A DNA stretch of 61,736 nucleotides, filler included, from Sluysia triapertura (taxonomy: Eukaryota): assembly GCA_046118255.1 (NCBI GenBank). It is 5 parts of 5 records of this genome, joined end to end, with 100 filler letters (N's around TTAATTAATTAA, not from the genome) between each part and the next. Parts side by side here need not be neighbours in the genome. Positions count along the whole stretch, not along the records: positions 11,298 to 22,552 come from JBJNIA010186736.1; 4 more parts are not named here. The stretch is one strand, 5' to 3'. Below the pieces are notes generated by a model that had not been told where the DNA came from, searched no databases, and saw nothing but the letters and a program-made list of their open reading frames with translations. This document shows positions 3,048 through 30,038 of this stretch, in pieces (within the stretch, counting starts at the first letter, position 1; the number at the start of each line of letters is the position of its first letter). A program made the position numbers and the translations under genes.

Positions 3048-3789
3048 TATTTAAATAAATAATTAACCGTATCTAACGTTACAGAGTATTTTCACACTTA
3101 ACAGAAATAATGTTTTACACCATCATGATCATAAGTTTATTTTTCATCTAAATTTCAAAAATATGAATAATTAAATTAATAATTTTATTATAATGAATTT
3201 TATTATTATTTAAATTTTATCTTAATTAAAAAAATTATATTTCATATTACAATATTTATTTAAAGTTGAAGTTTAGTTTTAGTTCTGTCATCACATCATT
3301 AAAAATTTAAAATATTTTTATTGGTTATTTATAAATGTTTACATTCTAAAATTCGAATTACTTTTTGAATATAACAAAATGAAAATGAAATAACTATTTA
3401 TACAATATACATTGATAATATAAATAAATTTATTATTTATAATTTAATTATATATTATTATAATTTATTTGTGTTTCAAAAATATAGAGAAAACACCAAA
3501 TAACTTAAAGAAAAGTTGATTTATAGAATATATTAACGCTATATTAAGTAACAATATTACTTATTACGTGTAAATTATTTTAGTTGAAATTTTAAATTTT
3601 ATTAAATAAATGAAATTAATTTTTATATTTATTAAATTAATAAATCAAAATTTTACAAATTTTATAATTTTAAAAATTGATAAATAAAGTTTTTTTGTAC
3701 TTTAAAATGAAAAAGCATTGAAAAATAAAACAAAATAAAATAAAATTTTGATGTAGTTGGTTATACACCTAGTGTTGCTGCACGTATCT

Positions 3790-4130
3790 CGTCTTGGATT
3801 CGGTTTAATACAAATTTTAGATACAATATCCTAAAAATTCGACTTGTTCTTTAGCCAGACACATTTTCTGAGCTTTACTTCTAATCTTTTTAAAATATTA
3901 TCATTGTCTTTTACATGAGTTTCGAAATCCTTAGAGAACCACTTGACATATTTTAATAGGTATTCTACCTTCATGAATATTACAAATTGAATCAGACATT
4001 CTATGTCCATACTTTCTTGATAGCTTTCTGAAGCTGGGAACATTATTCTACCCGTTCGTAAACTGTTTGTTTTTTATCTGTGAAAAAATCGTGGTTGTTT
4101 CTTGGCCCTCCATGCAGTCCAATTCTTCAA
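3790..4130 (-). mobile_element. Ty3/Gypsy reverse transcriptase relic
   Basis: FSKDFETHVKDNDNILKRLEVKLRKCVW, then after a frameshift AKEQVEFLGYCI...IKPNP. This is the typical gypsy RT C-terminal KC-F---V-FLG motif; YxDD is destroyed. Confidence 0.75.
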
Positions 4131-4464
4131 AATAATTTTAATGTGAAAATAAAATAATATAATTTCAATTTGTTATAATATAATTGTTCTAGATTTACTT
4201 GAAATAAACTAACACTTAAAATTCAATTTTAAATAACTTATGTTTCACCTATTTAAAAGAAATTGTAAAAGTGGCAAATAAAAATTGTTTTACTCTTTAC
4301 TGAGAAATAACATTAAATAAAATAATTTTATAATAAATTTTGTGATATTATTTAAACAATAATAAAATGGTTTTCTGAATAAATTAGATTAATTAAGTTG
4401 AAAAATTTTATTTTTCAGTTGATTTTTTTGCGTATCTAATTCGACATTTTTATAAATTGTACAA

Positions 4465-5165
4465 TAATTATAATAATAATGATGATAATAATAATAGATT
4501 AATTTATATTTCGCTCATATTTACTGCAAAATAAGTACTCAAAAACGCTTAAAATAAATCATTCACTATAATATTTTTGAAACAGAAAGAACTTTGCCTT
4601 TTTCTTAAATATTTCATAATCTTACAACAATTTGACATTCTCTGGTAACTGGTTGTATATTTTTGAAACATATTATCACTTTAGATTCTGTATGGATTAT
4701 TATGTATAGATTATTATATTCATCTTTGGTTTCCAAATTTTTTTTATTATTTCTAAGAGATATTCAGGATTTCCGTAATACAGACATTTGTAAATTATGG
4801 TCATGAATTTGAATTCTATTCTTGCTTTTATTGGCAACCAATGTAATTCTTTAAAATAAGGTGTTTTTATAATCTTCCAGCAATTTGGCATTCTCTGGTA
4901 ACTGGTTGTATATTTTTGAGACATAAACAGTATACAATCTATCACAGTGAATTCTGTCTAGATTATCATGCCTCAATGAAATATTCATCTTGGTTTGCAA
5001 TTTTCGTATTATTTCTAAAAGATATTCAGGACTTCCGTAATGTAAGCATTTATAAATTATTGTCATGATTTTGAATTCTATTCTTGCTTTTATTGACAAC
5101 CTATGTAATTCTTTAAGATAAGGTGTTACATAGAAAATTAGTCTTGCTGCTTGATTAATTATTAA
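4465..5165 (-). mobile_element. L2/Crack/CR1-group LINE 3' end, with the ORF2 C-terminus tandemly duplicated
   Basis: Two tandem copies of ARIEFKxMTIIYKCLxYGxPEYL, one preceded by intact KELHWLPIK. They are followed by a 3' UTR (...AAGCGTTTTTGAG...GAGCGAAATATAAATT) and an (ATT)n tail. Confidence 0.85.
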
Positions 5166-6680
5166 TTGTAATTTTTTCGAATATTTGATAGTTTATTTAG
5201 TTTATATTCTATATTTATTCTATATTTAATTTATATTCTATATTTATTCTATATTTATATTCTATATTTAATTTATATTCACGCTTTTTAATATTTTCTT
5301 CCATGTTCATGTTTAAATCCATATTTATACATAAATTAAGTGCATTTTTGAGGTATTTCTTTTAAATCTTTAATCTTTTTTTGCTTTAATTAAATTCATT
5401 TTAAATTAAGTTTCATTTTAAACTTATCAAAATACAATAAAAATACAATCTTTGTTATTTTTACAATCAAATTAAAAACAATGTACTTACTTTTGTACTG
5501 CTTAATTGTTTTTAAAATATTTGTTGTGGTCATTTGTCTTCCAGTATTAATTGACTGCTGCAAAAGTATCTGAGTTTTGTTATCGGTAACTAAATAAAAT
5601 TCCAATAAATGGATTTATTCACTTTACTTAATTTAAAATTGTCAGTTTCAACACAAGTGCAACTATAAAATATTATATTACAATTGTTGTTTTCTATTTC
5701 ATCATGGTTGTATGAATTGTTTGCAGAATTAATTTCCAAATGAATTACATTGTTGCTTTTTAAATTTAAGTATTGTTTACTAAAGTGCATTTATCTCTGT
5801 CTAATGTAGTAATGGAAACAACAAATAGAAAATAATTTATCTATCTTATTTTATATAAAATAAAAATGAATTAGTATAATAAGAACACAATATTAATTAT
5901 AAAATCTGGTTGGTTGTTGAGACATCATTTTCATTTATTATTAATAAATTTATTATAAATAAATAAAGATTTATTGTTAATATTCCATGGAAACTTATTT
6001 TATTCAATATTAACGTAATATTTTTATAATTATTAAAACTTACTACTTTCCGATATTATTTTCCACTAACTATTTCGATAAAATCAACATAAAATGGTTC
6101 CTTTGTTAATTAACCAATAATATTTGATTAATTAATGAGTAATGATGACTTTAATCAATTGTTTTTAATTGGTTCTTATAATTGTACATTTTTAGTATCA
6201 ACAGTGTAATAAATCATACTTTTTTTAACTAAATTCGTAAATTAAACTAAAAACAAAACAAATCAATTCACTGCAATCAACTTAAAATGTCGATAAATTG
6301 GAACAAAAAAATTCAATAATTTTATAAATTAGTATTTATGAAATATGTGATAATAAAAGTGTGAATAATATTTGAGATTAAAAATAAAGAAATTTTATCT
6401 AGATGTAGATTTGATATAATAAATAATACAAATAAAAATAATAAGATTTTATTTAAAAAATTATTATTATTAATATAAGTTTATCATTTGTAAAATTTCG
6501 AAAAGGTTTATTTAAACAATTTTATCTTCGTTCATCAATTCATAGCAATTTAAAATTGGTAATTAATTTTGTAGAATTTTTCAAACTTTATTCGACGCTA
6601 TTTCTGTAGATATAGCTGGAGTTTTTGAAATTAGTACAAGCAAATATAATTACCAATTTAGTAATTAATATAAACATCTG

Positions 6681-7215
6681 CAGTGGTGATCAAATTATTA
6701 GACTAAAGACGACCATTTTGTGATAAAATTCAACATTTTTCAAGGATACTATGAAACTATTAATCAAACGTGTATAAAAACATTGTCACGGAAAATGTAA
6801 AATTCTGCTGAAAATTAAAATATAGATAATAATAGATAAAAATAATAGATCCAAAACATACAGAAATTTTATTCATATAGAATGTGATAACACAATTTAA
6901 TACAAATCACATATGTACAAACTGTTGTATCAGTACTCTGTTATCCAATAATTTTCTGATCCTTAAAGGCATGCCATAGATGATCTTGGGGCACAAGTCT
7001 TTGATCTCGTCATCATGATGCCACACTTTTATCTGGGATTCAATAAGTTCCGACCTTGTGGTTGGTTTATGGGTAGAAAGTCTCCTTTTGACAATCTCCA
7101 CAGATTTTCTATGTGATTCATGTCTGGAGAGTTTCCAGGCCAGGGTAGCAAATATTAAGAAAACCAAAGAAAAACATATTTTTCCTGTTGTAGTCTAATA
7201 ATTTGGCCACCACTT
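6681..7215 (-). mobile_element. Non-autonomous Tc1-family element (internal deletion derivative)
   Basis: TIRs CAGTGGTGATCAAATTATTAGACTA and TAGTCTAATAATTTGGCCACCACT. The minus strand retains the transposase C-terminus LPWPGNSPDMNHIENLW...IVKRRL...GMPLRI. Confidence 0.88.
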
Positions 7216-8060
7216 ATTAACACTGTTTTTTTAAAAAATGCCAAAAGTCATTTCTTTTCTTTTCACAATTATAGAGGTATAAAAAATTCAAGCAGCAACA
7301 ATTTTTATGTAAACTATCTTTAAAATTTAATTAAACTCTTTAGTTGATGTATTATAACAACATCTAAGACTGTTTAATATTATAAAAACATTGAAAAATA
7401 TCATTTATTTAGTAGAGGAGTTTGTTTTAATAGGAATCAAATCAAATCGATAATTCAAACAAACTGAATAAACAAAGACAAATAATCAAAATAATATATA
7501 TTGTATTATTAAGATAATGACATTATGTATTGTTATAGTTTTATCTGTATTTTTTTTAAATATTGCATCCTGCTACAACCTTTTTGTCCGTAGTATATAT
7601 ATTGCAAAGTTTATCAAATTTCAAATTGTCAAATTTCTATCAATTCAGAATCAAATAAAATTTAATATCTTTTCCAAATTGAAAATTAATCAAAATTCGA
7701 TGCCAATTCGACGTTAAACCAATATTTTTATTTTTAGATTATTTTATAATTGTATAAGATAAATGGTGCCACAGCGTATCGATAAATGAAATTCCAAGTT
7801 AAAAATATTAAAGTATGACCAATTAATTTTTTATTTAATTAATATTATTTTTATGATTGTTAATAATAATAATGATAATAATAACAATAATGATGATAAT
7901 AATAATAACAGTAATAATGATAATGATAAACATTCAAAGTCTGTGTAACATATTAAATCTGCATAACATTTATATAATATGGAATCAGTTTTTAGTTTAA
8001 GTTTTTACGCATTTTCTTTTTCTGTTAATATTTACCTACTAACAATGCGGAAGTATTTGC

Positions 8061-8560
8061 TGTGGTTTGTTATAGCAAAAATTAGAAAAATCGAGCAGGG
8101 TTCGGTTACAGTAAGTGTCTTACAACGTCTCGTTGGCACTACTGCAACTAATAAGTTAAACGATTTATTTTAACTAAAACTTTAACTTACGAGGGTCAAT
8201 TAAATATTTGACGAATTCACAAAAATTACACAAATTGTATTCTTCAAAAATAAAATAAAATTACAAAATAGATCAAATAGTTATAGAACTAGTAAAAAGA
8301 TAGACAATAGTTAACAAAATTTTATTATTAAAACTGATTTTAGTCTTTAATAATTACAAATGATAAGTTTACGTTGATTTTACCCCTCAATATATCGGGG
8401 AACCTTACGAATTAGATTGCTTAAAAAATATAATTTTCGTCGATTTTAAAATATTAATTCTCTTAATTAGAATTAATATTAAACTTAACAAAAACAAATT
8501 ACTTTTCTCATGGAATGGTGAACGTGATTTTCGAATTCCTTGCTGCTGTAGTAGAATTAA
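8061..8560 (-). repeat. Solo-LTR-like dispersed repeat, copy 1
   Basis: Begins TGTGG. Shares TTACAGTAA..GTCTTACAACGT.TCGTTGGC...AACTAATAAGTTAA with the 48566 copy, and CCCTCAATAT with the 31.2 kb and 48.9 kb copies. Inner boundary approximate. Confidence 0.5.
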
Positions 8561-10199
8561 ATTTTCCAAAGGATATTGAATGATCCAACTAAGATTTAAT
8601 CACTTAACCACGATAAAAATCCAAGTAAAATTAATTGAATAATTTTAATCAAATATAATAATATAATTTGATCGAATATAATAATGATAATGACTTCTAA
8701 ACCTTTTGTACATTCTTCTGTACAATTTATGATATTATAAATTAATAAACTTGATAAGATGCAAGGAACTTTTTGCGATGAAAATAACAATGAATCATAG
8801 TCTTGAATTAAACTTAAACAGTAACAATTATTCTATTTATAGGTATTACTAATGTGAATAAAATCCTTATGATTACGAATAAAACAAACTTAGTCCTATT
8901 TGACAAAACCTTTTACTTTCATTCAATAATTATACTCTTATTCCATCAATTTTCTTTTAAACAAAGCTTTAAAGACCATTATCAAAAAGTTTCGTAAAGG
9001 ACACTTTGATCTATATAGTAGTTTAATTAATATTATATATCTAAAATAAAGTTCTTTCTACATTCGATTATTGTGATAAATGATTTATTCTAAACCCTTT
9101 GAAATATTTTATATTAAATATTTAAGTGTGTCGAATCAAAATCTGAACGAAATATTGTGTGATTTCTATTAGTAAAATTATAAATTAAGTTATCAAAAAA
9201 CATTAATTTTGTAATATTTATAGTGATTTATATATTATCAAAAAATATTTAAGCATCGATTTAGCCGTTTTGATCCCAATCACCGCGGCTTAATGACCCT
9301 ATACATTGAATTTATTAATGCCTTTCTTTAATTTAGTCACCTTCTTTACAAAGTATCGATAATAATAGAGTTAGTTCATGTAGAGTTTATTTATTGAATT
9401 ATTTTGCAACATATTTTGCAATTAAACAGTTATAATCCAAATTTACTCACTTGCAGTGTTTAATTTTTGACCTGATATTTAAATTTATAAAAATTTATTA
9501 CCTTCCGCGAAAAATGATTCTGAGATATCAATACTATTATTATATTTATTCCAGCATATAAGTCGTTATTACGTTACATATTTGAAATTAGAAATTTCGC
9601 AAGAAAAACATCTCTTTGTTTAAATATATGAATAGGTAATCCATATATTTTTAAAAAAAATATATTTTAATTACTTATAAAAGTAAGTGGAAAATTAAAA
9701 TTTAAAAAAAATAAACGTAGTTAAAAATAATTTTTTACCGCGAAGATAGCTGTACATAAAATCAATACATTCAGAAGTCAATTTGTTATTATATAATAAT
9801 TTGACGTCATATTGAAAAAATTTAATACACAATTGGATTATTTATATTTTATAATTTACTTAGTGAGTTTAGAATTATTATAAGTTGGTTCAATCGCAGA
9901 ACCTTAAAATCCACTCAAATCATTATTTAATTCATTACTTGCCCAATTTACTGAAAGTTAAAATCTGAATTTAGTTCGATTAAATATTAAAGAGTTTTAA
10001 TCTTAAAATAATATTTGTTATTGTTTCTTCTTTATTTAGTTCTTATATTTATTTAGCACATTTTAGATATTGTGATTTTGTTGACAGAAAGAAATTTTAA
10101 GAGAAAAGTATATTAAATTTTGACAGAGTTTTGTTATGATTGTTGTCAGAATAAACGAAGTTCGAATAATTCCTAGAGCAGAAGAAAAACAATAATAAA

Positions 10200-10350
10200 G
10201 AAAATAATCTACTTACGATGGTTAAATTACACGTTAAAGTTGCTCACTTACAATGTTACAGCAACGCTCACTATACGTTGTAAGTCATATACTCTAACGT
10301 GATCTTGTTAAAATTTATTTTGCCGTGGATTAAGAATAAGAAAAACCGCA
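10200..10350 (+). repeat. Solo-LTR-like repeat, inverted diverged copy
   Basis: The reverse complement starts TGCGG and contains CTTACAACGTATAGTGAGCGTTGCTGTAAC, matching the 8061 and 48566 copies. Confidence 0.45.
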
Positions 10351-10880
10351 GCAATTCAATTTTTTCTTTCTTAACATTAGTTTAGAAATGTTAATTATAA
10401 TTTAATATTTGAAAACAAAATTAAAATAAAAACATAAATATCTTCATTAATTTCACTTATGATTATGTTTTCTTTTACTATAATTTTACAAAATAATAAA
10501 TTATTAATAATAATAATTTATGACATACTAAAATGAAAATTCAATATTTTTGATTAATTATTATTAAAAACTTGTTTAAATATTTCAGATTTTTTTCAAA
10601 TAACTTGTAATTAAGTATGAATCTAATGATTTTCTTTATTCTGCTTTTACTGATTCACTTTCTAGACTTATGCGTATTACAATTTATTTTTATATTATAA
10701 TTTATATTTTTCTATCTATTTAAAACAAGATATTCCTCAAATTTTATTTAAATTTTTTTTGAAATAATATTCAAGTGAAAATATTTCTGCACGCAAACTT
10801 TTTCTTAAATATTATCTTTGAAAATAGTAACTGTGTGTAACAAATTATTCAGTTATAATAAGGTAAGTATAGGTAACATA

Positions 10881-11197: not shown

Positions 11198-11297
11198 NNN
11201 NNNNNNNNNNNNNNNNNNNNNNNNNNNNNNNNNNNNNNNNNTTAATTAATTAANNNNNNNNNNNNNNNNNNNNNNNNNNNNNNNNNNNNNNNNNNNN
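11198..11297. other. Artificial contig linker N44-TTAATTAATTAA-N44
   Basis: Exactly 100 nt with a six-frame-stop palindrome at the centre; recurs four times. Confidence 0.97.
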
Positions 11298-11761
11298 AGT
11301 TGTTTCTTACGCTGTGTCATTGTAAATATATTTTGACACTTCGAAGTCCTAATGAAAGTATGGATGGTTTTATTCGATATAATTGGATACCATTATAAAA
11401 TTTGAAATTTCAACTTGTAAAGAAATATCAACTTGATTCATAATCTTCTGATAATAAATCGTACATTTTACCGGATAAATTGATGAATTGATAGTTCTAA
11501 AAATTGCGAGATATAATGTGTGAATTTTAATTTGTTTTAATATTATAAATTATTATATAAGAGATTATGAATATTGAAGAAATTGTCAAACTTGCTCTGA
11601 TTGTTAAAGATTACACCTATTTAAATGACTTTTATATTTTATAAATTTTATATTTTAAAAATTATGTAAAATTTTTTACTTTTATATTTTCAAAACTCTA
11701 TATGTCTAAAAATTTAAAAATTCCCATTTTTTTGATGATACTCGATTTTTGAATACCAAGG

Positions 11762-12045
11762 ACTTCCTTTTTAAAGTGTTCATAATTAGTGATGCAAAAG
11801 TCGTAAGGATATCCACGACATAATTCAAATTCATTATAACGTAACAATAAGTGTCAATTCAGCATTGAAAGAAATTTTTTCGCACGATCATAGAAAATTT
11901 AAAATGCAATTACGTAATATCGCCGGACAAGAACGATATTCATTAATGGCAAGAATGTATTATGAAGAAGCTAGTGGTTGCATACTAATGCTTGATTTAG
12001 CAGAAAAAAAATCATTTCATAATATTACGAAATGGAAAGAAGACA
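11762..12045 (+). pseudogene. Rab29(Rab7L1)/Rab32/38-like small GTPase pseudogene
   Basis: DFLFKVFIISDAKVVRIS (decayed P-loop; Rab29 has DHLFKVLVVGDAAVGKTS), then MQLRNIAGQERYSLMARMYYEEASGCILMLDL...KWKED. The IAGQE motif is diagnostic of Rab29/32/38. G4/G5 motifs are absent and no introns are evident. Confidence 0.8.
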
Positions 12046-13197
12046 GTGCACTCTTAATTAGCGAAAAGGACGATGATACGTATGGAATAGCTAAGCAAAT
12101 TTTAAAGATCGTCTTAATCGAGGATCCTGTGAACCATATTTGGGGAGCAACTTTAAATGTAACCAGTTGTACTGTGACAGTCAAGAAAACCTTAGATTCA
12201 AATTTTAAAGATCAAGTGTGAAACTCTATTTATGATGAATTAGATGTTACGTTGAAATTATTATATTTTGATGTTATTATCAATTTTTTTATTAAGTTAA
12301 AAATAGTTCAACAATTAGTACTGAACAATGATACCCCTATTCCAAAAAGATGTTTACGTTATTTAAATTTTGAAGTTAATCGAATGTATAAGCCTATTCA
12401 TTTTAGTTATGTGGACAACTTATCCATCAACAAGCGACTTAGACAGGGATATCGTTTGCTCAGTACTAAGAACAAGTTCGTAACTTTAAAAACTAGTGAT
12501 TTGAAATTTCGTTCAATTTTTTGTTTTTCGATTTTTATTTTGGACTCGATATATGATTGCCATCGAGGTATGCTTGTTTTTATCGTGCTTGGGCCTGATG
12601 AGATGACTTTTCTTAGTAAAAATGTTGGAAAGAGTGGAAGCTTAGGAGCGATATCTTACAGTCTCATGGTTGATAGTGAATGTAAGTTTTATACTATTAG
12701 ACTTATTCAATGTTTTAATGTGTCAACAATCATTGTCAATCTTGTTTTATGTGCCTATAATATAAACTTGTCATGTTATCCTTGTTCAAATGTTGTTCTT
12801 TATAATGAGATTTTCGAGTGCCTTAAGCACCGGTTTTGTTGTAATTTCAAATATTATGTAGATAAAAACCGTTGTAACAGTATGTATGACAAGAATAGCA
12901 ACGGTAACCTTAAACATTTAAATTATAAGATTAAGATCACAATAATATTAAATTAGTATTAGCTATTCTAAGCAAGGAAGATAGTTTATATAAGACTAAA
13001 GCAAGTAAATTATTAAGGAAAATATGACAAAAAGAAAGAAAAGATAATCCTAAAGAATTAATGAAAATAAGTATAATTATTAATAATGCCCTAAATATTA
13101 CCATAGAACTTCCAGTAACTTTAATTGCAAAAGATATTACAGAATTATTACAAAATTATTACTTAATGATTATATAAATGATTATGGTTATCTGTCG

Positions 13198-13988
13198 ATG
13201 AATGGAAACCATGAGGAAGCTTCAATGACTTCCGCAGTTATAATGGCATATGCAAAGCCTTCAGATGATTTAAGAAAATTAGACGAATTAATAAATGATG
13301 ACAATGATGTTGATTTAGATAGAACCCCACGTTCATTATTAAGAGAATTAATGGAAGATAATTATAATGAAAGTAAAATTATAATGATGATTACATTGAA
13401 GATAAACCTGATTAAATGGTAGATTTAAACAAAAATCCATATATAGAAACTGAAGATAAGGAAACAAACACTTTTAAAAGAAGGCCAGGTAGACTTAGGA
13501 AAAATAAAGATAACGATGATGAAACAATAATCCGAACCCCAATACGCAGAAAACCCATTGACTTAACAAAAATTACTTATAAGAATGTAGAAGAAACTTT
13601 AAGTACTAAGAATATAATATATACTATCTAATAAGTTTTCTAACTGTGATAAATATAAGATACTATTACTAGAATTAAAAGAATATAAAACGCATTATCT
13701 AAGATAATTAAAATAATTGAGGAAAAATATAAGAATATGGATATAAGTGATTTCATAGACAATGGTCAATATAAATATATAATTAACAAACAAATTAACT
13801 CAGAAATTAACAAGGAAAGACTTAAAATAATAATGGCTTACATAATAATTCAATGTAATAAAGCTGCACTCTTAACCAAAGAAAAGATAGATAAAGTTAT
13901 AAACTTTGTCTTTAAGAAATTAAGTACCTTAATTGAAAAACAAGGTGGATGGAAAAATATTATTAAAGAAAAAGAAAAAATACTTTAA
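13198..13988 (+). pseudogene. Frameshifted ORF ending in a Bcl-2-like domain
   Basis: An acidic/basic N-terminal part (ORFs 13198-13422 and 13416-13631) precedes KIIEEKYKNMD (BH3-helix-like), EINKERLKIIMAY (BH1-like, cf. NWGRIVA) and LSTLIEKQGGWKNI (BH2-like, cf. WIxxxGGW). No C-terminal TM anchor. Confidence 0.55.
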
Positions 13989-14077
13989 ATGAACCGCTTA
14001 ACATGATATGAAAATTAATTAAATATAAAGGAAATTCAAGTGAATCATTTCCACATTTTGGAATTACAATAAATAAT

Positions 14078-14731
14078 ATGTTATTTATAATTGTTTTACT
14101 AGCATTATTTGGAATTCATAAAACCAATTCTATAAAGGCTTGTGACTGTAGCGAACCCCAAATTTGAAGAAAATATTCTTTATTGGACACTGAAGATTGT
14201 CCCGAATCAAAACAAAATAGAGTCACAATGAAAGACATGAAAGTACTAAATGTTTACTGAGAAGGAAATTTAGTTACAACATTGATTAGAGAAACAATTC
14301 TTGAATTAATTCCACCTCACCAAACAATTATGTTGAATTATTACCCTAAGTTAACCTTTCCAATTTACACATGGATACTTAATGATAATGAAACAATAAG
14401 AATAAATAATTGGTCAATCACATGACCATATAATTTAGTTATACCCATCATCAAGGAAACTATAAGTAACGAACTAAATAAGAATACTCTAATTAAGCCA
14501 TTAATAACTGAAAAAACAACTAAAATACCAAACAAATTTTCTAAAATTAGCTTAATTAATCTTAAAATCTCCAAACACAATAATGACATTAAAAGTAAAT
14601 TTAAAATCAAAATTTACCTCTGCATCATTACATTCACATTTTATGCTTTGCTTGCAGTTAGTCTTACGACTGAAGCCATAAAAATGTATTTAGGGATACC
14701 TCGTAGAATGACACATACGATTAAAGTTTAA
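14078..14731 (+). pseudogene. Viral-type envelope glycoprotein relic (chuvirus-glycoprotein-like N-terminus)
   Basis: One 217-codon frame with three internal TGA stops (14165, 14258, 14423). It has a signal peptide MLFIIVLLALFG, the motif IKACDCSEP...YSLLDTEDC, sequons NET and NWS, and a C-terminal TM segment IYLCIITFTFYALLAVSL. Confidence 0.6.
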
Positions 14732-14958
14732 GATTAAACAACATATAAAAGTTACGAGTGATCGATGTTGACAGTTAATTTCTGTACAACTGGTCACCTA
14801 ACTTTACAAAAAATATTTTTCAATATCTTTCGTAGTTTTTAGCGTGTACATAATTAGGATCATAACTATAGTATTTTAATTAACTAATTAATTAACTCTA
14901 AAATATTATTACCTTATTATATTTTATCTTCTTTTTGAAATTTCAGTAAGTGTATTTT

Positions 14959-15217
14959 CATCGATGTCCAATCTGTAAACATTCTATACATAAACATTAC
15001 CTAAAAATACATTATCAATCTTTTCCACTTTACTACTAAAGAATATATGAACTGTCCATTGTGTAGGACTCCTGTAGAAGAAATTCATATTTTTTATAAG
15101 GGTAAATTCCAACATCTATATACTTTAGAGAAAGTCCAATCATATTTACTTGATCAACGTATCGAAATTCAAGAATTAGTAATCACCCATCCACAATTTT
15201 TTAAGGAAAAAAGCTAG
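14959..15217 (+). pseudogene. RING-H2 zinc finger relic
   Basis: CPICKHSIHKHYL (CxHxxHxxC with C>Y), then after a frameshift MNCPLCRTPVEEI. Confidence 0.65.
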
Positions 15218-15518
15218 ACATTCAATAGACATACCATCTCCAAATTATCCTCCTGGATTGTCAAAATCCCAAAAACATAATAGACGTCGTCGTCAAATAA
15301 GACGTCTCTATAAAAAGGCAGATTGTATAAAAAGAGCAAAATAATTATTTATTAAGAAAAATCACACTTAAGTTTCTTTTTTACTCCTAAAATACATAAG
15401 TTATTAAAACAAGATATAATATAAAAAATTAAAAAATAAACTAACGAATTATTTTGTATATTTTTATGTACTTATTTATTCTTTTTATATGTATTGTTTT
15501 ATTTAGAATATTACAACA

Positions 15519-16500
15519 TGACACAACCACAGGCAAAGCTTGTTAATAATATATCTGCATTTTACAACGGCATAGACCGTTACTGTGGCCAGAATGATTT
15601 ACCCTTAATATTTTTAAAACCAAATGTAACCCAAAACATTCTAAAGTGTGAGATTGATGAGCCGTTCCTTGTTAGAACTGTAAAAGCTCCTTTAGTAGTA
15701 AATACTCTCCAGAGGTACCCCACCGGTAATAAATCAATTCTAATCGCCGCTGCTAAAGGAAATATAAGAATTACAATGTACATAGATTTCAATCCTTTAC
15801 AGATCTGCTTACAAAGTTTCACTTCTTTGTATGCTTCTAGTAAGTATAGAATCTACATCGACACAAACGAACGACTATCATCTTATTCTGTTCTATTTGC
15901 ACAAGAGGAAATTCAGTTAGACTTAAAGAAACGGCCGCTCTTGTATATTTCGATGTAAGCTCTATGTATAAGTGGGAAGAGTGTGTGATTTTCATCCACA
16001 CTCCTGATATTTCTTTACTCGAAAAGCCTAATTTAGTTTTCGTTGCGGCACAATTTGCTTTAGATTTTAATGATAGACACCAAATTATTAGAATTTGTCT
16101 GATGCACTATCATCAATCTTTCCAGTCAACAGAAACGATTAGGCCCAGAATTAGAATAAAAAACTTCTTAACCATACATCATGGGTTAAAAGAAGAAGAC
16201 CTAAGGAATGCTAAGGATGTCAACGATATAAAAAATTTATGGCTCGCTTCATGTACAATAAAGTTCCGGTATCTTTCTATCCATAACTGGTGATTAAGCT
16301 TTCGGAATTCCATATGGTTGGTTGCGAGGAGTGATTAATTTTAACCTGCACCAACCTCGTCTCACGTTCATCATTAAATCCGATTACCAAAGCAAGAAAA
16401 GTCCTACCATTACTCTATACTTTTTCACCAAAAACATTAACGTGTGAACAACACACTAAGGATACCATTTCCATTTTTGATATTTTGTGCAAAAAGGATG
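15519..16500 (+). pseudogene. Disrupted ORF: unknown N-terminal domain plus DEDDh (REX4/ISG20-like) 3'-5' exonuclease-like region
   Basis: ORF 15964-16293 contains IRPRIRIKNFLTIHHGLKEEDLRNAKDVNDIK, matching the xxP...I...T.ihGI..edL..a segment of DEDDh exonucleases. The catalytic ExoI residues are not clearly retained, and the frame is broken at about 15958 and 16290. Confidence 0.5.
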
Positions 16501-18808
16501 AATCATTCTTGCCACAGAAGGTTGTAATCGATAACACCACTATAATAACTCCTGATGATCATAATAAAAACTCATTCTATTTTCTTCTACCTCCTCTTCT
16601 TTTCCTTTTTGTGCACATGAACTTACATAAAAAATACATGCTGCACAGATAATAAGTGTAATATTTTTCATTTTGATAAACCTATTTTACATGAACAACA
16701 CAAGCATAACATAAAACATATAAAGAAATCATCAATCACTTCGACAATCAGCAACAACTCCAAAAAAGAAAGGCAGATCCACCAACCGCAAGGTAGTCAT
16801 CTTTTCCGAATGTAAATCTGGACGAAATAGAAACGATAAACATTAATTTGGGCCGAATAGTCAACACATCAACGTCTCCGAATATCGACCTCGACGATAC
16901 GGTCGACATTGATTTCAAACATTTGGCATCAACACTTGGTGAAGACGAATTCTTTGATTGTACTGACATCATTGATTTGACATTTTAAAAAAATTGGAGA
17001 CCAATCTTATTGGTCGAGTATGCTGTGTTATGATGTGTAATGACTATGTCTTATGACTATGACGAATGTGTGTGATGTTATAACTGATACCTTTGTACAT
17101 AAATTATTGATATCCACATGCGTATTAAAAATTATTGATTTTATGATTTTTATTTGATTTTTATTTTACGATTTTGTAATTCTTGGAATAATATATTAAA
17201 TTAATTTTAATGCAAGTAATTGTTTTTATTTGATTAATTTACAATAATTGTCTTTAATTAATAATTAGTTATCAATTAGTTAAATTATTAATTTTTAATT
17301 AAGAAATAATAATTTGTTTTTTTATATTAAATAAAATAATTTGTTTTAGTCTGACTAAAACAAGTATAAATAACAATGGAATATGTTGAGCGGTTGCACA
17401 ATATTCTTCAATATTTTACAAGGTTTTTCAAGAGCTTCCACAAGATTTTTCAAGATTTTACATACGATTTAACCAAGAGAATTCATGAAACCGTCGATGA
17501 TTCTTTTTCGACGATTCTTTTTACCCTTTACTTTAAAATCTTTTATCTACAAATCCAACGGCTGCCCCTGACTGGTAAACCCAGTACGTTGGTGGGGACT
17601 CACGTTAAAATTCTGTTTTATTCTATCGTATCTACTTTTAAATTCTCACATTATTATTTATCAGACATGATAATCTGTGGATTATTAAATTTGACTTTGA
17701 CATATCTACATTAGATTTACAGTGCAATAACGACTAATTTTAATAATATTTTAAATTTTATTGATTTTGACATCAATTTAGTATCTTTAAGACTATTAAG
17801 AAAAAAAACATGTGATGCATGTTTTCTTATTTTGAAAAAATAACATAATATTTTATCTACTTTCTATGTTGTTGTACTCTTTGTTTCCATTTGCTTAAAG
17901 TTATTTTTCTTGCTTAAAAATCATTTTTGTTTTGCTTTTCTTAATATATAATATATAATAAAATATATATAGTATAATAATATCGAATAATTCATATTTG
18001 CTATTTTATGTTGTTCGTCATTTTCCAAATAAGTTATTGTACTAGTTGATGTTACTTCTTTTTGTACTTTTATTTTATTAAACTAAGATCATTTTTGATT
18101 GGTTGAAAAATGAAAAATAATATTCTTTAACGATTTTATTAACGAAATTCTATTTTAATTAAAAAAACCAGAAAAAAATTATTTCAATAATTTTAATAAA
18201 TAGCAGTAACGAAGTAATAATAAATAAAGATATATTTTTGGAAATTATCTGGATGCATACGTACATTTTATACAATAGAATTTAATAATTGTTCATGTAA
18301 TTTATAGAAAAAGTATTTAGATTATTATTATTATTATTTACTTAGTATTAATTTGTTTTAATTTATTTCAATTACAACATTTTGAAACTAGTAATTTTGG
18401 TTTTTGTTATTTAATTTTAATTTCAAATTTTGGTGGAAAATTTTGAAAAACAATTTGTAAAGTAAAATAAAACAATTAAAATGTTGTTTTACAGAAACTG
18501 TTCATTTATTCAAGGTTGTTATAATATGACCTTGACCTAACTATGACGTCAACGTAAGTATGAATTTACAAAATTTGCATCTAGCCCTATTGTTATAACT
18601 GTTTTTAATTGTGTTTTGTTATTTACTGTAAGCTTTTATCAATTTTACTATTTTATGCGATGAATTTATGGATCTTAGAAAACAAACTATTAACATGTGA
18701 TTTTTAATCGGTACCAATTTGAATAAAACAAGACAAATATACGCAAATAATTGGTTTTTGAAAAATGTTATTAAATAATCCATAATTTTCAAGTTCGTCT
18801 CTCATAAT

Positions 18809-19100
18809 AATACTGGTGAAACAATATTAACATCTAGTGTACATGCATTTAATATCGAATAGTTTAGATAACGATGTGGGACAAAATTTGAGTTTTTTTA
18901 TCCAATAACATTGCTATTATTTTAATAATATAAAATACTGATGAAACAATATTCATATTTCGTGCACATGAATTTAATTTCGAATGAGGAAAAAATTTGC
19001 TTATCTATTATATATAAATTATCGTACAGTAAAATCACGAATATTTCAACAATATAAAATACTGGTAAAATAATATTAACACCGAGTGCACATGTGCGTA
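18809..19100. repeat. Three degenerate direct repeats at about 124-bp period
   Basis: AATACTG(G/A)T(G/A)AA..AATATT(A/C)A...GTG/TACATG-like block at 18809, 18934 and 19058. Confidence 0.65.
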
Positions 19101-20400
19101 ACAATAAATGTCAAAATAGAAAACATTGTTTTAACTTTGTTTCTGAGATTCTGAGATTATCACCATCTTCTAAATAATCTCTATACATGTCGCATATATT
19201 TATATAATAATTAAAAGAGAAAGTGGCATATTTACAAATAAGATATCTTTTAAATTGTCTTTTTTGTTTTCCGTCCTTAGTATAAAGCCACATATCACCA
19301 TGTACAAATAGTTTTTGTGCATGCAAAAAATGACAATATTATGAAATTTAATTTTAATTTTACCTAAAAGTGGAATATCTCCAAATTGATTTTTATTTAA
19401 ATTAAATTAAAATATTAATAAGAATAAATATAATAATTATTTTTATTTTATTATAATGAGCTATCAAGAAATTTTTAAAATAGTCAAATTCTTCGTATTT
19501 CAGAAATATAATGTATATGTATTAATAACGAAACAACGATAATAGAATGATAAAAGATAGCGAGAACAAAAGAAATAAAAATAAATTGAGTTGGTACACA
19601 ATTTAGAAAACATAATGTTAGTTGTCCAATCTGATTCACCGCAAAATTTTATTCACGAATCATTTCAATCGACTCCATTTTTATGACAAAGAAAATTTTT
19701 CATATTAGTTCTATTACTCGTAAGAGTAATTAACATAAAATAGACTTAACTTAAAATTTGTAAATTATTTTCAAAAACCCCGATGTAATGAGTAACAAAA
19801 TTAAAGACCTTGTTAAGTTTTTAATTATAAAATAATAAATTAACCTATATTAGTTGTCTTTAATTTTTATTCTTATTAGTGTTAATTGTTTGATTTTCCT
19901 TTTGTTAATAAAGGTTCCTTTTGTTCAGTTTTGTTTCGATTAATCGATGAAGTGAGATAAAAAAATTAAATTACTTGATAGTAATTAAGACCCTCTAACT
20001 AAAATACAAAAAGTTATAGCCGAATTTTTCATATTAATTACGTTAAGACCTTTTTATGACATAACCGGAACCTACTAAATTTTATTTTACCGTATGTTAT
20101 GAATTAAGAAAACTACAGCAAATTTTGATTATTTTTGAAGCAATATTTCTTTTTTATTTCTATTTTGTTTTAATCACACCATCACCAAGGTCATATTTTA
20201 ATACAATGTCTTACTTAATTCTTTATTAAATAAATCATAAACAAAATAAATATTTTCAACGAAAACATGCAATGTTCAACATAATTTCAATTCTTAATTA
20301 AAGCAAACATTATTGAGTTGTATTTCTTTTCCAATATCGTCTATTAAATCACTGCAATATAAAGTTTGAACCTTTTTTTCGTTTTATTCTGACATTAACA

Positions 20401-20532
20401 ACTGTTGGGATATAGGCCTAAGGTACCACTTGACTATTCTAATCTAAAAATTGTTAGATGGGGCTGATAGCTCAGTGGGTAGAAGTCCAGGGCCTGATCG
20501 CCGGTCAGTCCATTTTATGAAGTCTAACACAA
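20401..20532 (+). repeat. tRNA-derived repeat (anticodon arm deleted) with conserved upstream flank
   Basis: GGGGCTGATAGCTCAGTGGGTAGA (A box)...GATCGCCGGTCAGTCCATTTTATGAAGTCTAACAC; homologous to 56346-56515 and 60411-60469. Confidence 0.75.
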
Positions 20533-20723
20533 TATATAACCCTAGTATCTACTACAAAACGCTTAAAATAGATCATTCATCATAATAATTTTGGTTTTCT
20601 CCTATTTTATTTTTTCCACAACTTCCGTAAATTAAGCATTTACAGATTATCTTATGATTTTGAATTGTATGAGGTCTGCCTTTTAAATGAAAAATTAATT
20701 GCAACTTATAATTATTATGTTGT

Positions 20724-20763
<40 letters not shown>

Positions 20764-20774
20764 AATATAATTAC

Positions 20775-21051
20775 TTTGTTGATTTATATGATCCGACAGT
20801 GATAATGTAATACCAACAAGAATGACCGTCATAACCAATAAAAATAAACCAACTCCCATAACCAATCTGGTCATCCGTTTATTTTTCTCACTACGTTGTA
20901 GTTCCAATTGATAAGATGATCTTCTAGAATCACTGCGATATTTAGCTGCTTCTTCGGAATAAGCCAACAATGCTTCCATAGTTACCGAACCGACAACATT
21001 ATTCGATTGTATATTTGTATTTGATAATTCAATTACTTCAGCAATTGACAT
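20775..21051 (-). CDS. Probable first coding exon of a small single-pass membrane protein
   Basis: 92 clean codons from ATG with one TM helix (LVMGVGLFLLVMTVILVGITLSL). A GTAATT donor lies at 20774; the ORF-track poly-Leu tail is an intronic (TTA)n. The downstream exon was not resolved. Confidence 0.65.
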
Positions 21052-22552
21052 TTCAGTAGGATTATTTTAGTAAAAAACAATTTCTATGTAAAATTCGATA
21101 AATAATTCCAACATTCGATAAAGAAAAATAAAACTTTTCAAATGAAATTTAATTATTAAATTACTAAAACGCTAATTATTGAAAGCTCTAGAGATATATA
21201 TGTATAGTAAAATGTAAATTAACGAATTAACGAAAAATAAATTTATGATTGGATAATAAATATAATAATAATTTATACAGAATTAAAAGAGAGAAGAAAG
21301 TCATGAAAAAATATTTTACACAAAAATTAGAAAATGATTTACTTTATTATTTATTTATATTTGATTTATTTATTTATATTTAGATTTTGATTTTTCATAT
21401 AATATACATAAATAAACAAATGCGATTATTTTATTTGTTTTTATAAAATATCGAATTTCATATTGTAAATAAATTTATTATATATATACTTTTTGTATTT
21501 TTATATTTTATTTTGTTGTAAAAAATTATTAAATTATTATTATTTAAAAAATTATTATTTCTTGCTGGGCTCTTATTTCTATTTGTAAATTCTTCATTAT
21601 TCGGCCACTTTGGAGAAGGTCTTTGCTCGAATTATTTTCTTTCATTATAATTTCTTGCAAATCCTCTTGCTCTTTCTTTTCTTTGATTAAAATCATTTTT
21701 TCGAGAGGTAAAATTATTTTTTCTATAAGTATTACCTCTATAATTATTATTGTTATTATTATCTGAAACGACTTATTTCTAAACGTATCGTTACTCCTAT
21801 CTCTCTTATCATCATCACTTACATAACGTACGTTGTTTTTTGCTTCAATTTTAGATCTCTCTATTCCTCTTAATATTTTGACGATCTCTTTAAATTGTGA
21901 GAAAGATAAGTGAAGTAAATAGAATAAAACTTAACTTAAAGTAAGTTCACCAAGGTACTGGACTTACCAGTTAGGGCCTATTAGTTTCAAAAATGTGCTA
22001 ATAGGACCTCAATGCTCAATCCTACCTGGAGGTAAAATTTATTAATGTCTATTATTAAGATCCTCTAATAATTGTCAAATTTAAGTTTTCTTATCAAAAA
22101 TGTAAGTACATTTGAAGTAGATCTGGAAAACTTTGATTGTAAATAGAAATAAAATTTATTTAGTAATTTTACGTAGATTCCGTTATATGGAATCGTTATA
22201 ACAGATTTAAATTCTAGCTTCTTGAAGTAACGTGATTTTAAGTGTTAACAAATTTTAAAACTATACAATTTAATTGAGTAAGTAATTATAAATAAAAAAC
22301 TTTATTATCAAAACTTATACAAAAAATTAAAGAATTTATAAAAATTATCGATAATAATAATAAATTACAGTACTATCTTATTTAGTTAACTAATAAAATA
22401 ATTTTAAAAATATATTTTACCAAGGATCCAATATATGATCCAAATGAATTAAATGAATTTCGTGGAGTTTACTTATAATATTTTAGAAAATATCGATCTT
22501 ACTGTAATTAAACTTACGCGATTGCTAATAAAATTTTTGATTAAATTCAATA

Positions 22553-22652
22553 NNNNNNNNNNNNNNNNNNNNNNNNNNNNNNNNNNNNNNNNNNNNTTAA
22601 TTAATTAANNNNNNNNNNNNNNNNNNNNNNNNNNNNNNNNNNNNNNNNNNNN
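22553..22652. other. Artificial contig linker
   Basis: N44-TTAATTAATTAA-N44. Confidence 0.97.
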
Positions 22653-25777: not shown

Positions 25778-26980
25778 AGTAATCATGTACATTATTTTGG
25801 TAAAATAGAAAAACTGTATTATTGTGCAAATGTTTGGAAATTATAATTGAAAATATTGATTTTTTTCTGATTTTGATTAACTTTTTATAGCTCTCTAAAA
25901 ATCTAGTAAACATGCAACAATTTCTCATTACCATCTTTCTTTTGCTCTACTTTACACCTATAATCACTGTTATTTCTTTTTTATTTTTATTATCTCTAAT
26001 TTCTTTATTAATCATTTTATATTAATTTTTATTATTTTTTTATAATATTAGTTCTTATTTTTCATTCTCTATTTAATTTTTTAAATTTTATTCTTAATCT
26101 AAATTTGCAGTAAATTTTTTCTATTTTTTCATTAGTTTAATTTTTATTATTAATTTAATCTTTATAATTATAAATTCATTTTTAGCTCCAAATCTGAAGT
26201 GTTTTCAATTGTAAGCCCTGAAATTAATTTATAACTCATATTTTTATCAAGTCAACTCTTAAGAATGCTAACACATTAAAGTAATGTTTTCTGAGAATGA
26301 GCACAACTTTGTGTTTTAAGCCATTCATAAAACACTATCACCTGCATCTGTCTCTTTATTTTCATCGACACTTCACTAGATGGATCACGTAGCGATCTAG
26401 GACATAGTGCAACAAATAAAATGAAAATCGATGACTAGGAAGAAAGAATGATGAAAGACATTAAGGTTAAAGAGATTAAAGAAAGTGAAATAACAGAAGT
26501 ATTCCTAAGCTATATTAAGAATAAATAATCAAATTTATTTATTCAAGAAAATGTAAATTTATTAAGAAATAATTACAAAGTTTGTTCCTACGATATTATT
26601 CTACTACTCAAAATAAAAGCCAAACCTTATCCAATCATTAATGTAAGAAAATTTTTGGTGCTGTTTTACTTTGTTATCAAAATTTCATATATTTTTAATT
26701 TAATGCTTAATTTAGTTAAGTTATTGAAATTGAATTTAAAGTGTGTAAATATTTTTTTAGATACTAAAAACAAATATTATTATTTAGTAAGTTTACGCAA
26801 TATACTACAGACAATTTCAGAATTATTGTGTTTAAATATGCCATTGTCCTTGTAATGAATAAGCACACCGATTTGAAACTTAAATAAACGTTTTATTGAT
26901 TGAATAACAGGAAGATTAGTATCTGCAGTTTTTCTCAAGCACATTTTGAATTAAAAAATAAAGTAATTAATTTAACAAGC

Positions 26981-29900
26981 ATGTGTGATATTGAGTGCGT
27001 CGAATTCGATAATAAAGAGAAAATTTACAATGAATTATGTCATATGCTGTTAGAAGGTCAATCACATAATACTGAAAATATGAGCTCTGATACTGCAGTT
27101 CTTGTTCATTCCAACAAGGATCGAATATATCAAAAAGATGAAATCAATATCACCGGTATTCCGCCTATATCAAAATTGTATGTGAAATATTCTGAAGATT
27201 TTCGAGAAAAACTAAAGCATCCTCCATCATCCAATGAAAAAACTATTGCTAGTGGCAGTTATAGTAATGAAAGTGAAAATACGTATAGTGATATATCGGA
27301 TTTATGCAGTCAGACTGAATCTGAAGATGATAAAAAGAAATTAAAGAAGCAAGAATTGAATGAGAATGATAAATCTTTGAAAAAAATGGTGGATAGTTGT
27401 GAAAGTTTTAATGATGAAGCAATACTTCATAATAACTCTGATAAAAAATCTTTGCAAATTTTAAATAATAATAAATTTTGTGTTGCAACTGAAATTGGTG
27501 ACGATTTCAATGAATTTATTAAGGAATCTCCAGAAAAAATACGACAAACTTTTTCAGGACAAGCTGATAACATTTATCATGATTTGGAACAGAAAATTTT
27601 ACCTTTTGTTCGCAATATACGAACTGTTGAATTGAAATTACTAGGTCGAGTATCTATTTTTCAAAAGGCCTGTATTAAACAAATAGCGCAGCAGCATGAT
27701 TTAATGGTCAAACAATTTGGCAAAGGACGTGATAGTTTTGTTTTGTTGAGAAAAAAGGTTGGACTTTTGGAATCCCAGAAAGTATTTTTAGAAATGAAAA
27801 AAGCAGAAAAAGAAAAAAATGAATTGAAACTTAAACAATTACAAGGTTAGTTTGTTTGGTTTTGTTTTGTGGCTTAATTCGACTATAACGAAATTTATGT
27901 ATGAAAAGAATTGATTTACATATACAGAAGGAGTAGTTAGATGTCATTTTAGTTTTTATCTCTTATTAAATAGTTATATTTAAATGCATTTAATTCATTC
28001 GGTTGATAATTATAACAATTAATTATTTGTAGTAGCATAACTTAATTTATATAGAGTAATTTATAGCAGATTCCAAACAAATTTTGTTAGGTTTGAAGGG
28101 ATTAAAAAGAATGCTGTGTACTTAAATACAATAATAATATTGCAAAATAATGGCTCAATAAGAGTTAATGTATATACATGAAATCTATTTAATAGAATTA
28201 TTTTATTTTAAATTTAAGTACTAACAAATATAAGTAGCAAATTTTTTACAAAAAATATTAAATTTATTATTTAACAGAAAAGCGAGATAAATTGCTAAAC
28301 CCACCAAAATTCACAACATCTTCATGTCAAGTCGATTTTTTGTCCGATAATACTGCAGATGCAGATGATGAAGCGCCACCATTAAGTAAACAAGCTAAGA
28401 AGCGATTGAAACACAAAAACAATGAACTAAAACGAAAGAAAAACCTGAAACGAGATTCGGCAGCTCAAACTGCTCCTGATGGGTTTTATGTATGTCCATA
28501 TTGCGAAGATGATATTCCTGAAGGTATTCGACATATCCATTATCCGTTTTGTATAGAAAAATACCGTTCTGGACAATTGAATAGTCACAATGATAAATTT
28601 AATCAGTATTTCTGTAGTCATAGCAATAGAGTTAGTTTTAACAGTTTTTATAACAAATAGTTTTTCAAAGAACAAACACAAAAATTGCTTTAATGAAAAG
28701 AAAATTAATTGCCTTTGTGCTACAAGAGCGTTATTATAAGATGTTATTTACTTCAAAGATGTTACATTGTCGTGGAATTGGAATTGGGATTCATTAATAA
28801 GATTCATCTGTAAATAAAATATTAATTTGAATTTTAAACAAATTAATTAATTACATTCTATACTTTTTTTATTACGTATTTCCATTTATTATTGACTTCA
28901 ATGTTTAAATTAGTTTTTCGTTTACTTATTAATTTAAAAGTAGTATATTATTTCTTTCAAATAAACCACATGGAAAATCCGCTAAAATTGAATATAGACG
29001 CAAACAAATACTAGCTAGCACGGTAGTATATTGTGTTTCCTCGAAAATAAGACAGGGCTTAAATTAATTTTCACTAGGACTTATTTTTTGGGTGTCCTAT
29101 TTTCATTTATCGAAAAACTATGAAATTTCTAAATATATAAAAAACATGAAAATCGATCTACATTTACTAATGAATAACATGTTTTATGTTTAAAAACCAC
29201 TAATTATAAATCTTTCAAAAATGACCATATCGTCGTCCTCTGGACTATCTTACAAGTCACACTGGATTACAAAGTTTTCATTTAACCGAGTAGTTGTACT
29301 TGTATCATCCATATCTGTTGAACAAAGAACGAGTCAAAAATATTCATGATAACCTATAATTATTAAGTAAATATTTGAATTTTAATAAAAATAAACTTAA
29401 TTTTTTTAAGACTTCTTCAAAATCACGCGATAGAAAAGTAGAAAATGTTGGCAATCAAATAGATAAATTGAAAAAAGAGCTATCAAATGTACATGACAAT
29501 GACATCAATGAAATCATAAATCGTATAAATGATATAGAAAAACGATGTTCGGTAACAGGATGCGAAAAGAAAAAATTTTGTGTTAGTTATTTTGTAAAAC
29601 AATTATCTACTTTTATTTATCAATAGATAAAGTCCAATTAAAAATACAATAGAAATGTTTTTCAATTTTTAGATTTGCAAAGAATGTAATATGGCTCTTT
29701 GTGCAACACATTTTAATTCTGATGCTTCGAATAAAAATCCACAAGTTCATTTTAATTGTCCAGTGTTGCTAGAAAAAGAAGAACAAAAAAAAGCCAATCG
29801 TCTTGGTAGTAATAATCCACTTTTAAAGACTGTACAAGAATTACGAACTCCGAATATTCCAAATGGGATGGCTGCGAAACGAGGTCGACGTGTAAAAATG

Positions 29901-30038
29901 TCGAATGCAACTACTGCATCACTGAACAGTCAAAATTCAACAAACACAAATAATCAATTATTTGATTTTGAAAGAAATATTCTTAAAAAGCAATTGAAAG
30001 AACGCATTACTTATTTAAGTGATAAACGATCTAAATAA
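26981..30038 (+). CDS. IGHMBP2/SMUBP-2 C-terminus-like protein (degenerate R3H, C2HC finger, AN1-type zinc finger), 584 aa, 4 exons
   Basis: Exons 26981-27845, 28278-28630, 29411-29581 and 29673-30038; all donors are GTTAGT, acceptors are AG, and phases 1/0/0 join in frame (1755 nt). Motifs: R3H-like FQKACIKQIAQQHDLMVKQFGKGRDSFVLLRK; CPYC...HYPFC; spliced CSVTGC...CICKECNMALCATH...PQVHFNC; tail ERNILKKQLKERITYLSDKRS resembling the IGHMBP2 C-terminus. AATAAA follows near 30117. Confidence 0.85.
29031..29101. mobile_element. Tc2/pogo-type terminal fragment in intron 2
   Basis: TGTGTTTCCTCGAAAATAAGACAGGGCTTAAATTAATTTT...CTTATTTT resembles TA|CCGTGTTTCCCCGAAAATAAGAC termini of Tc2-like elements. 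Confidence 0.5.

Follow-up and report, generated by a model that had tools for sequence, protein, structure and literature searches.

A dead retroelement copy in Sluysia triapertura, probably an internally deleted derivative of a Burro-like GAG-ENV-POL Gypsy retrotransposon

For the Burro retrotransposons of planarians, a polyprotein with the order Ubi/SUMO, BCL-2, Env and protease (PR) is described in the available text of PMC6431247, where accessory open reading frames (ORFs) are also mentioned. GAG-ENV-POL elements with a gB-type envelope protein (env) have been reported from Platyhelminthes (flatworms), Nematoda and Bryozoa, including six Schmidtea elements with 1-215 intact copies; the words Bcl, exonuclease, ubiquitin and Burro do not occur in the accessible main text of that report (PMC13524379). 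According to the portion of PMC13465017 consulted, which cites other work, a BIR-RING (inhibitor of apoptosis, IAP) gene of Burro1 reportedly keeps the stem cells of planarians from undergoing apoptosis. Here we describe a locus found in a 61.7-kb stretch of DNA (61,736 nucleotides, hereafter the window) from Sluysia triapertura, assembly GCA_046118255.1. The part analysed, from contig JBJNIA010186736.1, is gap-free (11298-22552). Broken plus-strand frames span ~12935 to 16290, possibly 16650, and are best read, with a probability of about 0.85, as the dead remains of a Burro-like GAG-ENV-POL Gypsy retrotransposon that was truncated on its 5' side and likely lost an internal part.

The window DNA is AT-rich, with a GC content per kb of 0.18-0.38; its repeats, together with the relatives described below, suggest an animal host. 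Thirty window frames, including 11 in the region of interest, were scanned with Pfam. No direct match to Bcl-2, env, RING or RNase_T was obtained, and for this reason the domain labels had to be tested through relatives. These included proteins (P0001, P0004-P0008, P0013, P0015 and P0016, among others) and four loci (L001-L004) confirmed out of 594 candidate stretches in a metagenome scan. No related locus was found in the viral-contig scans or in the prokaryote-genome scan, and word-index homolog searches among longer proteins gave no match for the exonuclease piece or the Bcl-2 piece. When four profiles were built from relatives only, each top-scoring window site was located within 12950-16233, on a single strand and in the order of the relatives. 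In reversed-window controls with five profiles, the lowest independent E-value (iE) was 0.22. The first-pass annotation had described four co-oriented and disrupted coding relics that lacked evident introns. The relics are real, lie on one strand without introns, are interrupted by stops and frameshifts, and start ~260 nt upstream of the start given there; they do not represent four accessory genes, since the Bcl-2 and env parts are domains of a polyprotein.

The env frame (14078-14728) was read with X at its three stops and compared by phmmer with 1.84 billion representative proteins. Eight of the nine matches were fusion proteins of the Monjiviricetes type (PF24664), which aligned with query residues 1-77 only; the ninth, a CUB-repeat protein, was put aside as spurious. 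Retroviral protease or zinc-knuckle domains were present in five of the eight, and reverse transcriptase (RT), RNase H (RH) and integrase (IN) in one (P0008). A profile of nine full-length env relatives matched 14078-14302 through positions 6-80 of 710 (iE 9e-19) and nowhere else in the window. The segment 14078-14305 (+), with two in-frame stops, would encode the N-terminal 75 residues of an envelope fusion protein of class III (Monjiviricetes/chuvirus-like, gB-type), and by these matches the homology holds for residues 1-75 only. As all three stops of the env frame are TGA, a host code reading TGA as a residue was considered. It was ruled out because other frames break at TAA, TAG and frameshifts, and because most contigs of the sequencing run described below differ at the TGA stops.

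Upstream of env, the segment 13671-13985 (+) carries the C-terminal part of a predicted Bcl-2-fold domain, ending in a GGW (BH2-like) motif. A profile of the Bcl-2 region of seven relatives matched 13671-13976 with an iE of 5.5e-7, its best site in the whole window. With the window piece alone the matches to solved Bcl-2 proteins were weak (phmmer against the PDB, E 0.38 and 2.1). Its single-sequence AlphaFold model (pLDDT 62) gave no Foldseek match at E 0.001 and a VIA list topped by unrelated helical bundles. Among the relatives, P0001 showed a weak Pfam Bcl-2 match (E 1e-3) immediately before env, and the corresponding domain of L003 could be modelled from an 8-row alignment with pLDDT 75. 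Foldseek returned the Bcl-2 family in 41 of the 41 rows listed for the L003 model (probability 0.99-1.00; best E 8.6e-3, none below 1e-3). In VIA the family filled the top 27 of 50 rows (best Z 9.3, root-mean-square deviation 2.8, 117 aligned); a Z of such size is common for helical proteins, and the uniform family ranking is the telling part. The Bcl-2 fold is indicated by the model of relative L003, and the profile ties the window piece to the L003-type domain. The earlier Bcl-2-like call is upheld by these two lines of evidence.

The 5' end of the relic (12935-13210, +; one in-frame stop and one frameshift) comprises a helical segment and a likely ubiquitin-like domain (UBL). The profile of the helical-plus-UBL region of the relatives found its top window site at 12950-13174, with an iE of 0.005 when built from 6 sequences and 0.1 from 8; the reversed-window controls gave 0.22 and 0.75. 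The relatives themselves match Pfam ubiquitin weakly, and a PDB search with the window piece returned nothing relevant. Between the UBL and Bcl-2 segments, an acidic and basic linker (13211-13670, +) is broken by several frameshifts. It contains a motif at 13476-13502 that we take to be AT-hook-like. Basic GRP motifs were alike at the corresponding place in P0005, P0013, P0016 and L003.

In the relatives these domains belong to one long polyprotein. L001 and L002 have a single frame of 3426 and 3703 aa, respectively, with env, PR, RT, RH and IN, followed by a separate RNase_T gene; L002 also shows zinc knuckles and a weak ubiquitin match. L003 is a 5' part with one stop between Bcl-2 and env; in L004, env is present and no Bcl-2-like region could be recognised by eye. 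In L001, L002, P0001, P0004, P0006 and P0015, env follows immediately after Bcl-2 within a single frame. Both gag upstream and PR-RT-RH-IN downstream of env were found in L002 and L004, and the pol side in L001. In P0004, P0005, P0007 and P0008 env runs on into a retroviral protease, and in P0008 further into RT, RNase H and integrase; env was upstream of protease or pol in every relative with enough sequence. The distance from UBL to GGW is 764 nt in the window and 729-996 nt in relatives, and that from GGW to env 194 nt and 243-261 nt, respectively. By domain order and spacing, the left pieces of the relic correspond to consecutive domains (a likely UBL, the Bcl-2 fold and the env start) of a single gag-UBL-Bcl2-env-PR-RT-RH-IN polyprotein.

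Two observations were made on these polyproteins. Several tandem aspartic-protease-like domains, internal signal/transmembrane segments, ankyrin repeats and C2H2 fingers occur in the lineage, as in P0016 (4844 aa) and L001 (2-10279). P0008, a complete Gypsy gag-env-pol polyprotein, is labelled as a protein of a Flavobacteriaceae metagenome-assembled genome and probably represents animal DNA that was assigned to a bacterium during binning.

This arrangement bears on the initial proposal that the stretch is the 3' accessory region of an enveloped retroelement, with four separate genes downstream of pol in a BEL/Pao element with a chuvirus env, or of an endogenous DNA virus. All parts are indeed co-oriented, the env family is chuvirus-like, and a stop and a frame change lie between Bcl-2 and env in the window copy. 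In the relatives, however, env is placed upstream of pol with Bcl-2 directly before it in the same frame, their Pfam scans show Gypsy-type pol domains, and no families that we take to be BEL/Pao-specific were found in those scans. No DNA-virus hallmark was detected by Pfam in the 30 window frames, in line with the viral-contig result. We regard this explanation as highly improbable: one enveloped retroelement is retained from it, and neither its 3' position nor its BEL/Pao or DNA-virus affiliation is. Because Bcl-2 and env lie upstream of pol in intact relatives, the compact arrangement of the window is more likely the outcome of an internal deletion in a Burro-like element.

The right part of the relic (15518-16290, +; frameshifted, likely continued to ~16650) represents a 3' accessory gene with an N-terminal domain and the first half of a putative ISG20/REX4-like DEDDh exonuclease. 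A profile of the exonuclease genes of L001 and L002 matched 15763-16233 with an iE of 3e-8, and BLASTP against L002 gave 30% identity over 89 aa (E 3e-8). The N-terminal domain of the relic resembled that of L002 weakly (21/1000 shuffles were as good) and gave no match to that of L001 (155/1000). In L001 and L002, that is in two of the four loci, the other two ending too early, the separate gene 3' of the polyprotein matches Pfam RNase_T. The L001 domain also matches the solved structures of ISG20L2 (E 3e-7) and ISG20 (E 1e-6). All five residues of the catalytic set D-E-D-H-D are present in L002, and L001 has E at the third. On this comparison, the right piece matches the separate exonuclease gene located 3' of the polyprotein in intact relatives, and the DEDDh call stands, through those relatives, for the N-terminal half of the domain. 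The full catalytic set was not recovered in the window copy, which is devoid of both ExoI acids (D and E, the first two catalytic acids), and the remainder could not be aligned. A second 3' ORF, coiled-coil-like and with no Pfam match, stands beside the exonuclease gene in L002 (11375-12040) and L001 (12229-12663).

From env to exonuclease, 1901 nt were counted in the window, as compared with 8916 and 9685 nt in the relatives. For this reason an internal deletion is the simplest reading, and a loss of ~7-8 kb likely removed most of env and all of pol. The env start continues in frame into a tail (14306-14728, +) with a transmembrane segment predicted from hydropathy near 14600-14680, which likely comes from the 3' side of the deletion. 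The best of 11 targets for this tail was the coiled-coil ORF of L002, a weak similarity (z 3.6) that was not relied on.

Between the tail and the exonuclease lies a small ORF (14959-15214, +; one frameshift), which had been called RING-H2. Scored with X at the frameshift, it matched the Pfam families DUF7837 (8e-8) and zf-Di19 (5e-6), and RING families at best with 1.7e-3, through the last knuckle only. The RING-H2 models gave E 0.28 and 3.8, and only five of the eight C3H2C3 ligands fit by eye. A complete C-x2-C-x11-H-x4-H pattern is present, and fingers of the form C-x2-C-x12-H-x4-H are carried by the P0013 and P0016 polyproteins. Against the PDB, the C2H2 region of RNF125 was matched with E 0.14 and the RING of TRIM30 with E 0.066, the latter being the point in favour of reading the ORF as half a RING. 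The motifs and Pfam scores suggest that the ORF is likely a Di19-type C2H2 finger with a CxxC knuckle rather than a RING-H2 domain, and the original call was abandoned. A RING in such elements would in any case not be new, because of the BIR-RING gene reported for Burro1 (PMC13465017, portion at hand).

Depth was evaluated in one public sequencing run (X1), in which 38% of sampled words matched and which is perhaps the source material, not independent support. Unique contigs at the locus had a depth of 9-15. The summed contig depth, which is not a copy number, was 15,000-144,000 over 12842-14209 (18,000-144,000 for the Bcl-2/env part), 1,300-5,900 around the end of the env homology with the lowest values near the junction, 36,000 at the transmembrane tail, 1,100-10,400 in the zinc-finger region, 180-2,100 at the exonuclease and 152 at the proposed long terminal repeat (LTR). 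Diverged copies of every part were present, and the stretch is repetitive. A variant 13 nt past the end of the env homology was seen in 36 contigs, which suggests that the junction is likely common to several copies. In single contigs, 15320 is linked to 15457, and 15366 to 16649, the latter without the exonuclease. At three in-frame stops of the window, the majority of contigs have a different sequence.

Several results weigh against the reading as a deleted Burro-like copy. The 140 codons of the tail showed no significant match to the env C-terminus or to polyprotein tails, so that the glycoprotein call of the first-pass annotation is kept for residues 1-75 and dropped for the rest. Downstream of pol, L001, L002 and L004 showed no comparable zinc-finger ORF, and the right end of the deletion could not be mapped because neither the tail nor this ORF matches anything in the relatives. 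The support for the UBL identity is weak, and for the ExoII/III (second) half of the nuclease none of three frames yielded a significant match. The exonuclease depth is far under that of Bcl-2/env; together with the contig joining 15366 to 16649, this suggests that the exonuclease may occur in only some family members. No contig of run X1 spans the whole stretch. No paired LTRs, primer-binding site, polypurine tract (PPT) or target-site duplication were found, and the copy has no LTR. Profiles of gag, RT, RH and IN had no match in 11300-22550, as had been noted for gag and pol before, and the RT clade of the copy cannot be placed. As gag and PR-RT-RH-IN were not found, the copy was classed as a derivative and not as an autonomous GAG-ENV-POL member.

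The depth differences of 10- to 100-fold between parts, and the lack of matches for tail and zinc finger in relatives, could also be attributed to chance neighbours, namely a Burro-like 5' fragment (UBL, Bcl-2 and env start) beside unrelated repeats or nested insertions that supplied the tail, the zinc finger and the exonuclease. Against this, the exonuclease relic resembles the gene carried by elements of this lineage and matches neither Pfam RNase_T nor solved cellular ISG20; its strand and its place 3' of env agree with L001/L002; and other contigs show joins of 15320 to 15457 and of 15366 to 16649. Such an origin is considered improbable.

Alternatively, the locus could belong to a naturally short, pol-less family under selection, encoding a membrane-anchored Bcl-2 protein together with a zinc finger and an exonuclease, from which helper elements or the host would benefit. 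The in-frame passage of the env start into a tail with a predicted transmembrane segment would suit this explanation, as would the junction seemingly common to several copies and the differences at the three stops, which make these look like private decay. An in-frame deletion junction is nevertheless expected in 1 of 3 cases by chance, full-length parents can supply the high Bcl-2/env depth, and the depth is lowest around the junction. We therefore hold the short family to be unlikely and prefer the deleted Burro-like copy.

The 3' boundary proposed in the first-pass annotation, a PPT and short LTR at 17021-17118 (+), was not supported, although the letters described are present. The 15 bases leading up to the TG at 17021 include only 7 purines, a value equalled or exceeded at 66% of the 3217 TG sites of the window, and neither a purine run nor a partner repeat for 17021-17118 was found in the window. 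The depth there is also far below that of the interior, whereas an LTR would be expected to reach at least the same abundance. Just upstream, a short acidic reading-frame relic (16710-16985, +) had no Pfam match and has diverged copies in run X1. A high-depth repeat (17370-17714; 22,865 over 17459-17600) follows directly 3' of the element and has no upstream partner in the window.

The window copy makes nothing functional, and what follows concerns its parent. From its domain families, the parent element would have copied itself by reverse transcription in a Gypsy cycle, with its polyprotein cut by proteases. Judging from the folds, the gB-type class III env could have served entry into other cells, and the Bcl-2 domain could have blocked apoptosis and thereby preserved the host cell. 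The exonuclease would act 3'-5' on RNA or single-stranded DNA, trimming or degrading it, and most likely blunt host small-RNA or nucleic-acid sensing. Short derivatives would likely spread with the enzymes of the parent. One may speculate further that the Burro-like enveloped Gypsy elements make up a wider lineage, in which an anti-apoptotic Bcl-2 domain and an active ISG20-like exonuclease gene of the element together serve as a counter-defence kit, and that the host holds a multi-copy, pol-less satellite family keeping this kit (membrane-anchored Bcl-2, zinc finger and exonuclease) without replication genes; this combined proposal is doubtful.

Other features of the window were recorded. Just 5' of the element, an intron-free Rab-like GTPase relic (11793-12221, +; Pfam Ras 8e-15) has a summed depth of ~1300 and is therefore repeated; it may represent either an accessory ORF located 5' of the element or an independent repeat. 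A stop-free frame of 244 codons (12222-12956, +), with no Pfam match, lies between it and the element. The only RT match in the window is a Gypsy RT relic at 3753-3980 (-), matched at 3947-3789 with an iE of 4e-6 by the RT of the relatives, on the opposite strand and across a gap from the locus. A Tc1/mariner-type transposase relic (2355-2708, -; Pfam 4e-8) lies between two inverted-repeat pairs (1717-3011). The segment 20324-20699 has a summed depth of 136,000 and, by eye, a tRNA-like head near 20460-20500; it is likely a short interspersed element (SINE), and Rfam and ARAGORN gave no match, including for this head. At 26900-30038 (+) there is a likely multi-exon host gene with cysteine/histidine-rich segments, presumably R3H- and AN1-like, for which Pfam gave only a weak DUF4303 match. 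A tandem array with units of ~45 nt was located at 52465-52804. Strong strand skew was observed over 56001-60000 (GC skew -0.53 and AT skew +0.38 at 57001-58000), where an N/Q/T-rich frame of 298 codons (56792-57688) is probably another retroelement relic. The gaps at 11198-11297, 22553-22652, 35466-35565 and 46437-46536 each consist of 44 N, a 12-base all-frame stop linker and 44 N.

Compared with described systems, the locus most resembles Burro/GYPSM1, the giant planarian Gypsy elements, which exceed 25 kb and have long LTRs, in the order of Ubi/SUMO-like, BCL2-like and Env domains in one polyprotein, with the UBL part weak here. As in the relatives, these domains lie upstream of PR-RT-RH-IN in Burro, which has thousands of copies and, in one species, decayed fragments (PMC6431247, available text). 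Unlike in Burro, gag, pol and LTR are absent from the window copy. The Burro env is called similar to gypsy Env and mononegavirus fusion proteins in the available text (PMC6431247), whereas here it falls into PF24664. Ankyrin repeats, also present in relative P0016, were not found by Pfam in the window frames, where most of the polyprotein is missing. Likewise, no BIR, MATH or dUTPase domain was found in these frames or in the relatives scanned. The copy is Burro-like by its apparent domain order; being without RT, it cannot be placed with Burro1-4 by RT/IN. The GAG-ENV-POL errantiviruses with an env of herpes simplex virus (HSV)/gB type resemble the relatives in having env between gag and pol; the available text treats intact elements, while the window copy is a deleted relic (PMC13524379).

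A DEDD-superfamily exonuclease encoded as a separate gene 3' of pol, as in the lineage described here, is known from the Juno and Vesta LTR elements of bdelloid rotifers. Their ORF3 is, according to the portion seen, of DEDDy/RNase D type and they have no true env (PMC5408684), whereas here the enzyme is ISG20/REX4-like DEDDh with an extra N-terminal domain and is accompanied by env and Bcl-2. BEL/Pao elements of the Anakin type, as far as their description was available, share the broad env family through a chuvirus glycoprotein; in contrast, the relatives tested carry env upstream of a Gypsy-type pol in one polyprotein, and the BEL-type order was not found. Troyka elements were considered for comparison and set aside as irrelevant, being without env in the text available (PMC12440569). 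Nothing on domain content was contributed by PMC8532177. The earlier statement that such a combination is unknown among described elements does not hold for UBL-BCL2-env, which has been reported from Burro (PMC6431247). No report of an element that combines Bcl-2, a gB-type env and a DEDDh gene was found in the literature covered, Repbase annotations and two key Burro papers lying outside it, so an annotation of this combination may already exist. In itself the locus is a dead repeat, and its value lies in pointing to the intact L001 and L002, which add an ISG20-like DEDDh gene to the Bcl-2 and env design. Because Burro1 is reported to protect planarian stem cells (PMC13465017, cited in part), further accessory genes of the lineage are testable candidates for retroelement handling of host defence. 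Most of the design had already been described for Burro; the 3' DEDDh gene, present in L001 and L002 and unnamed for Burro in the available text of PMC6431247, may be new for the group.

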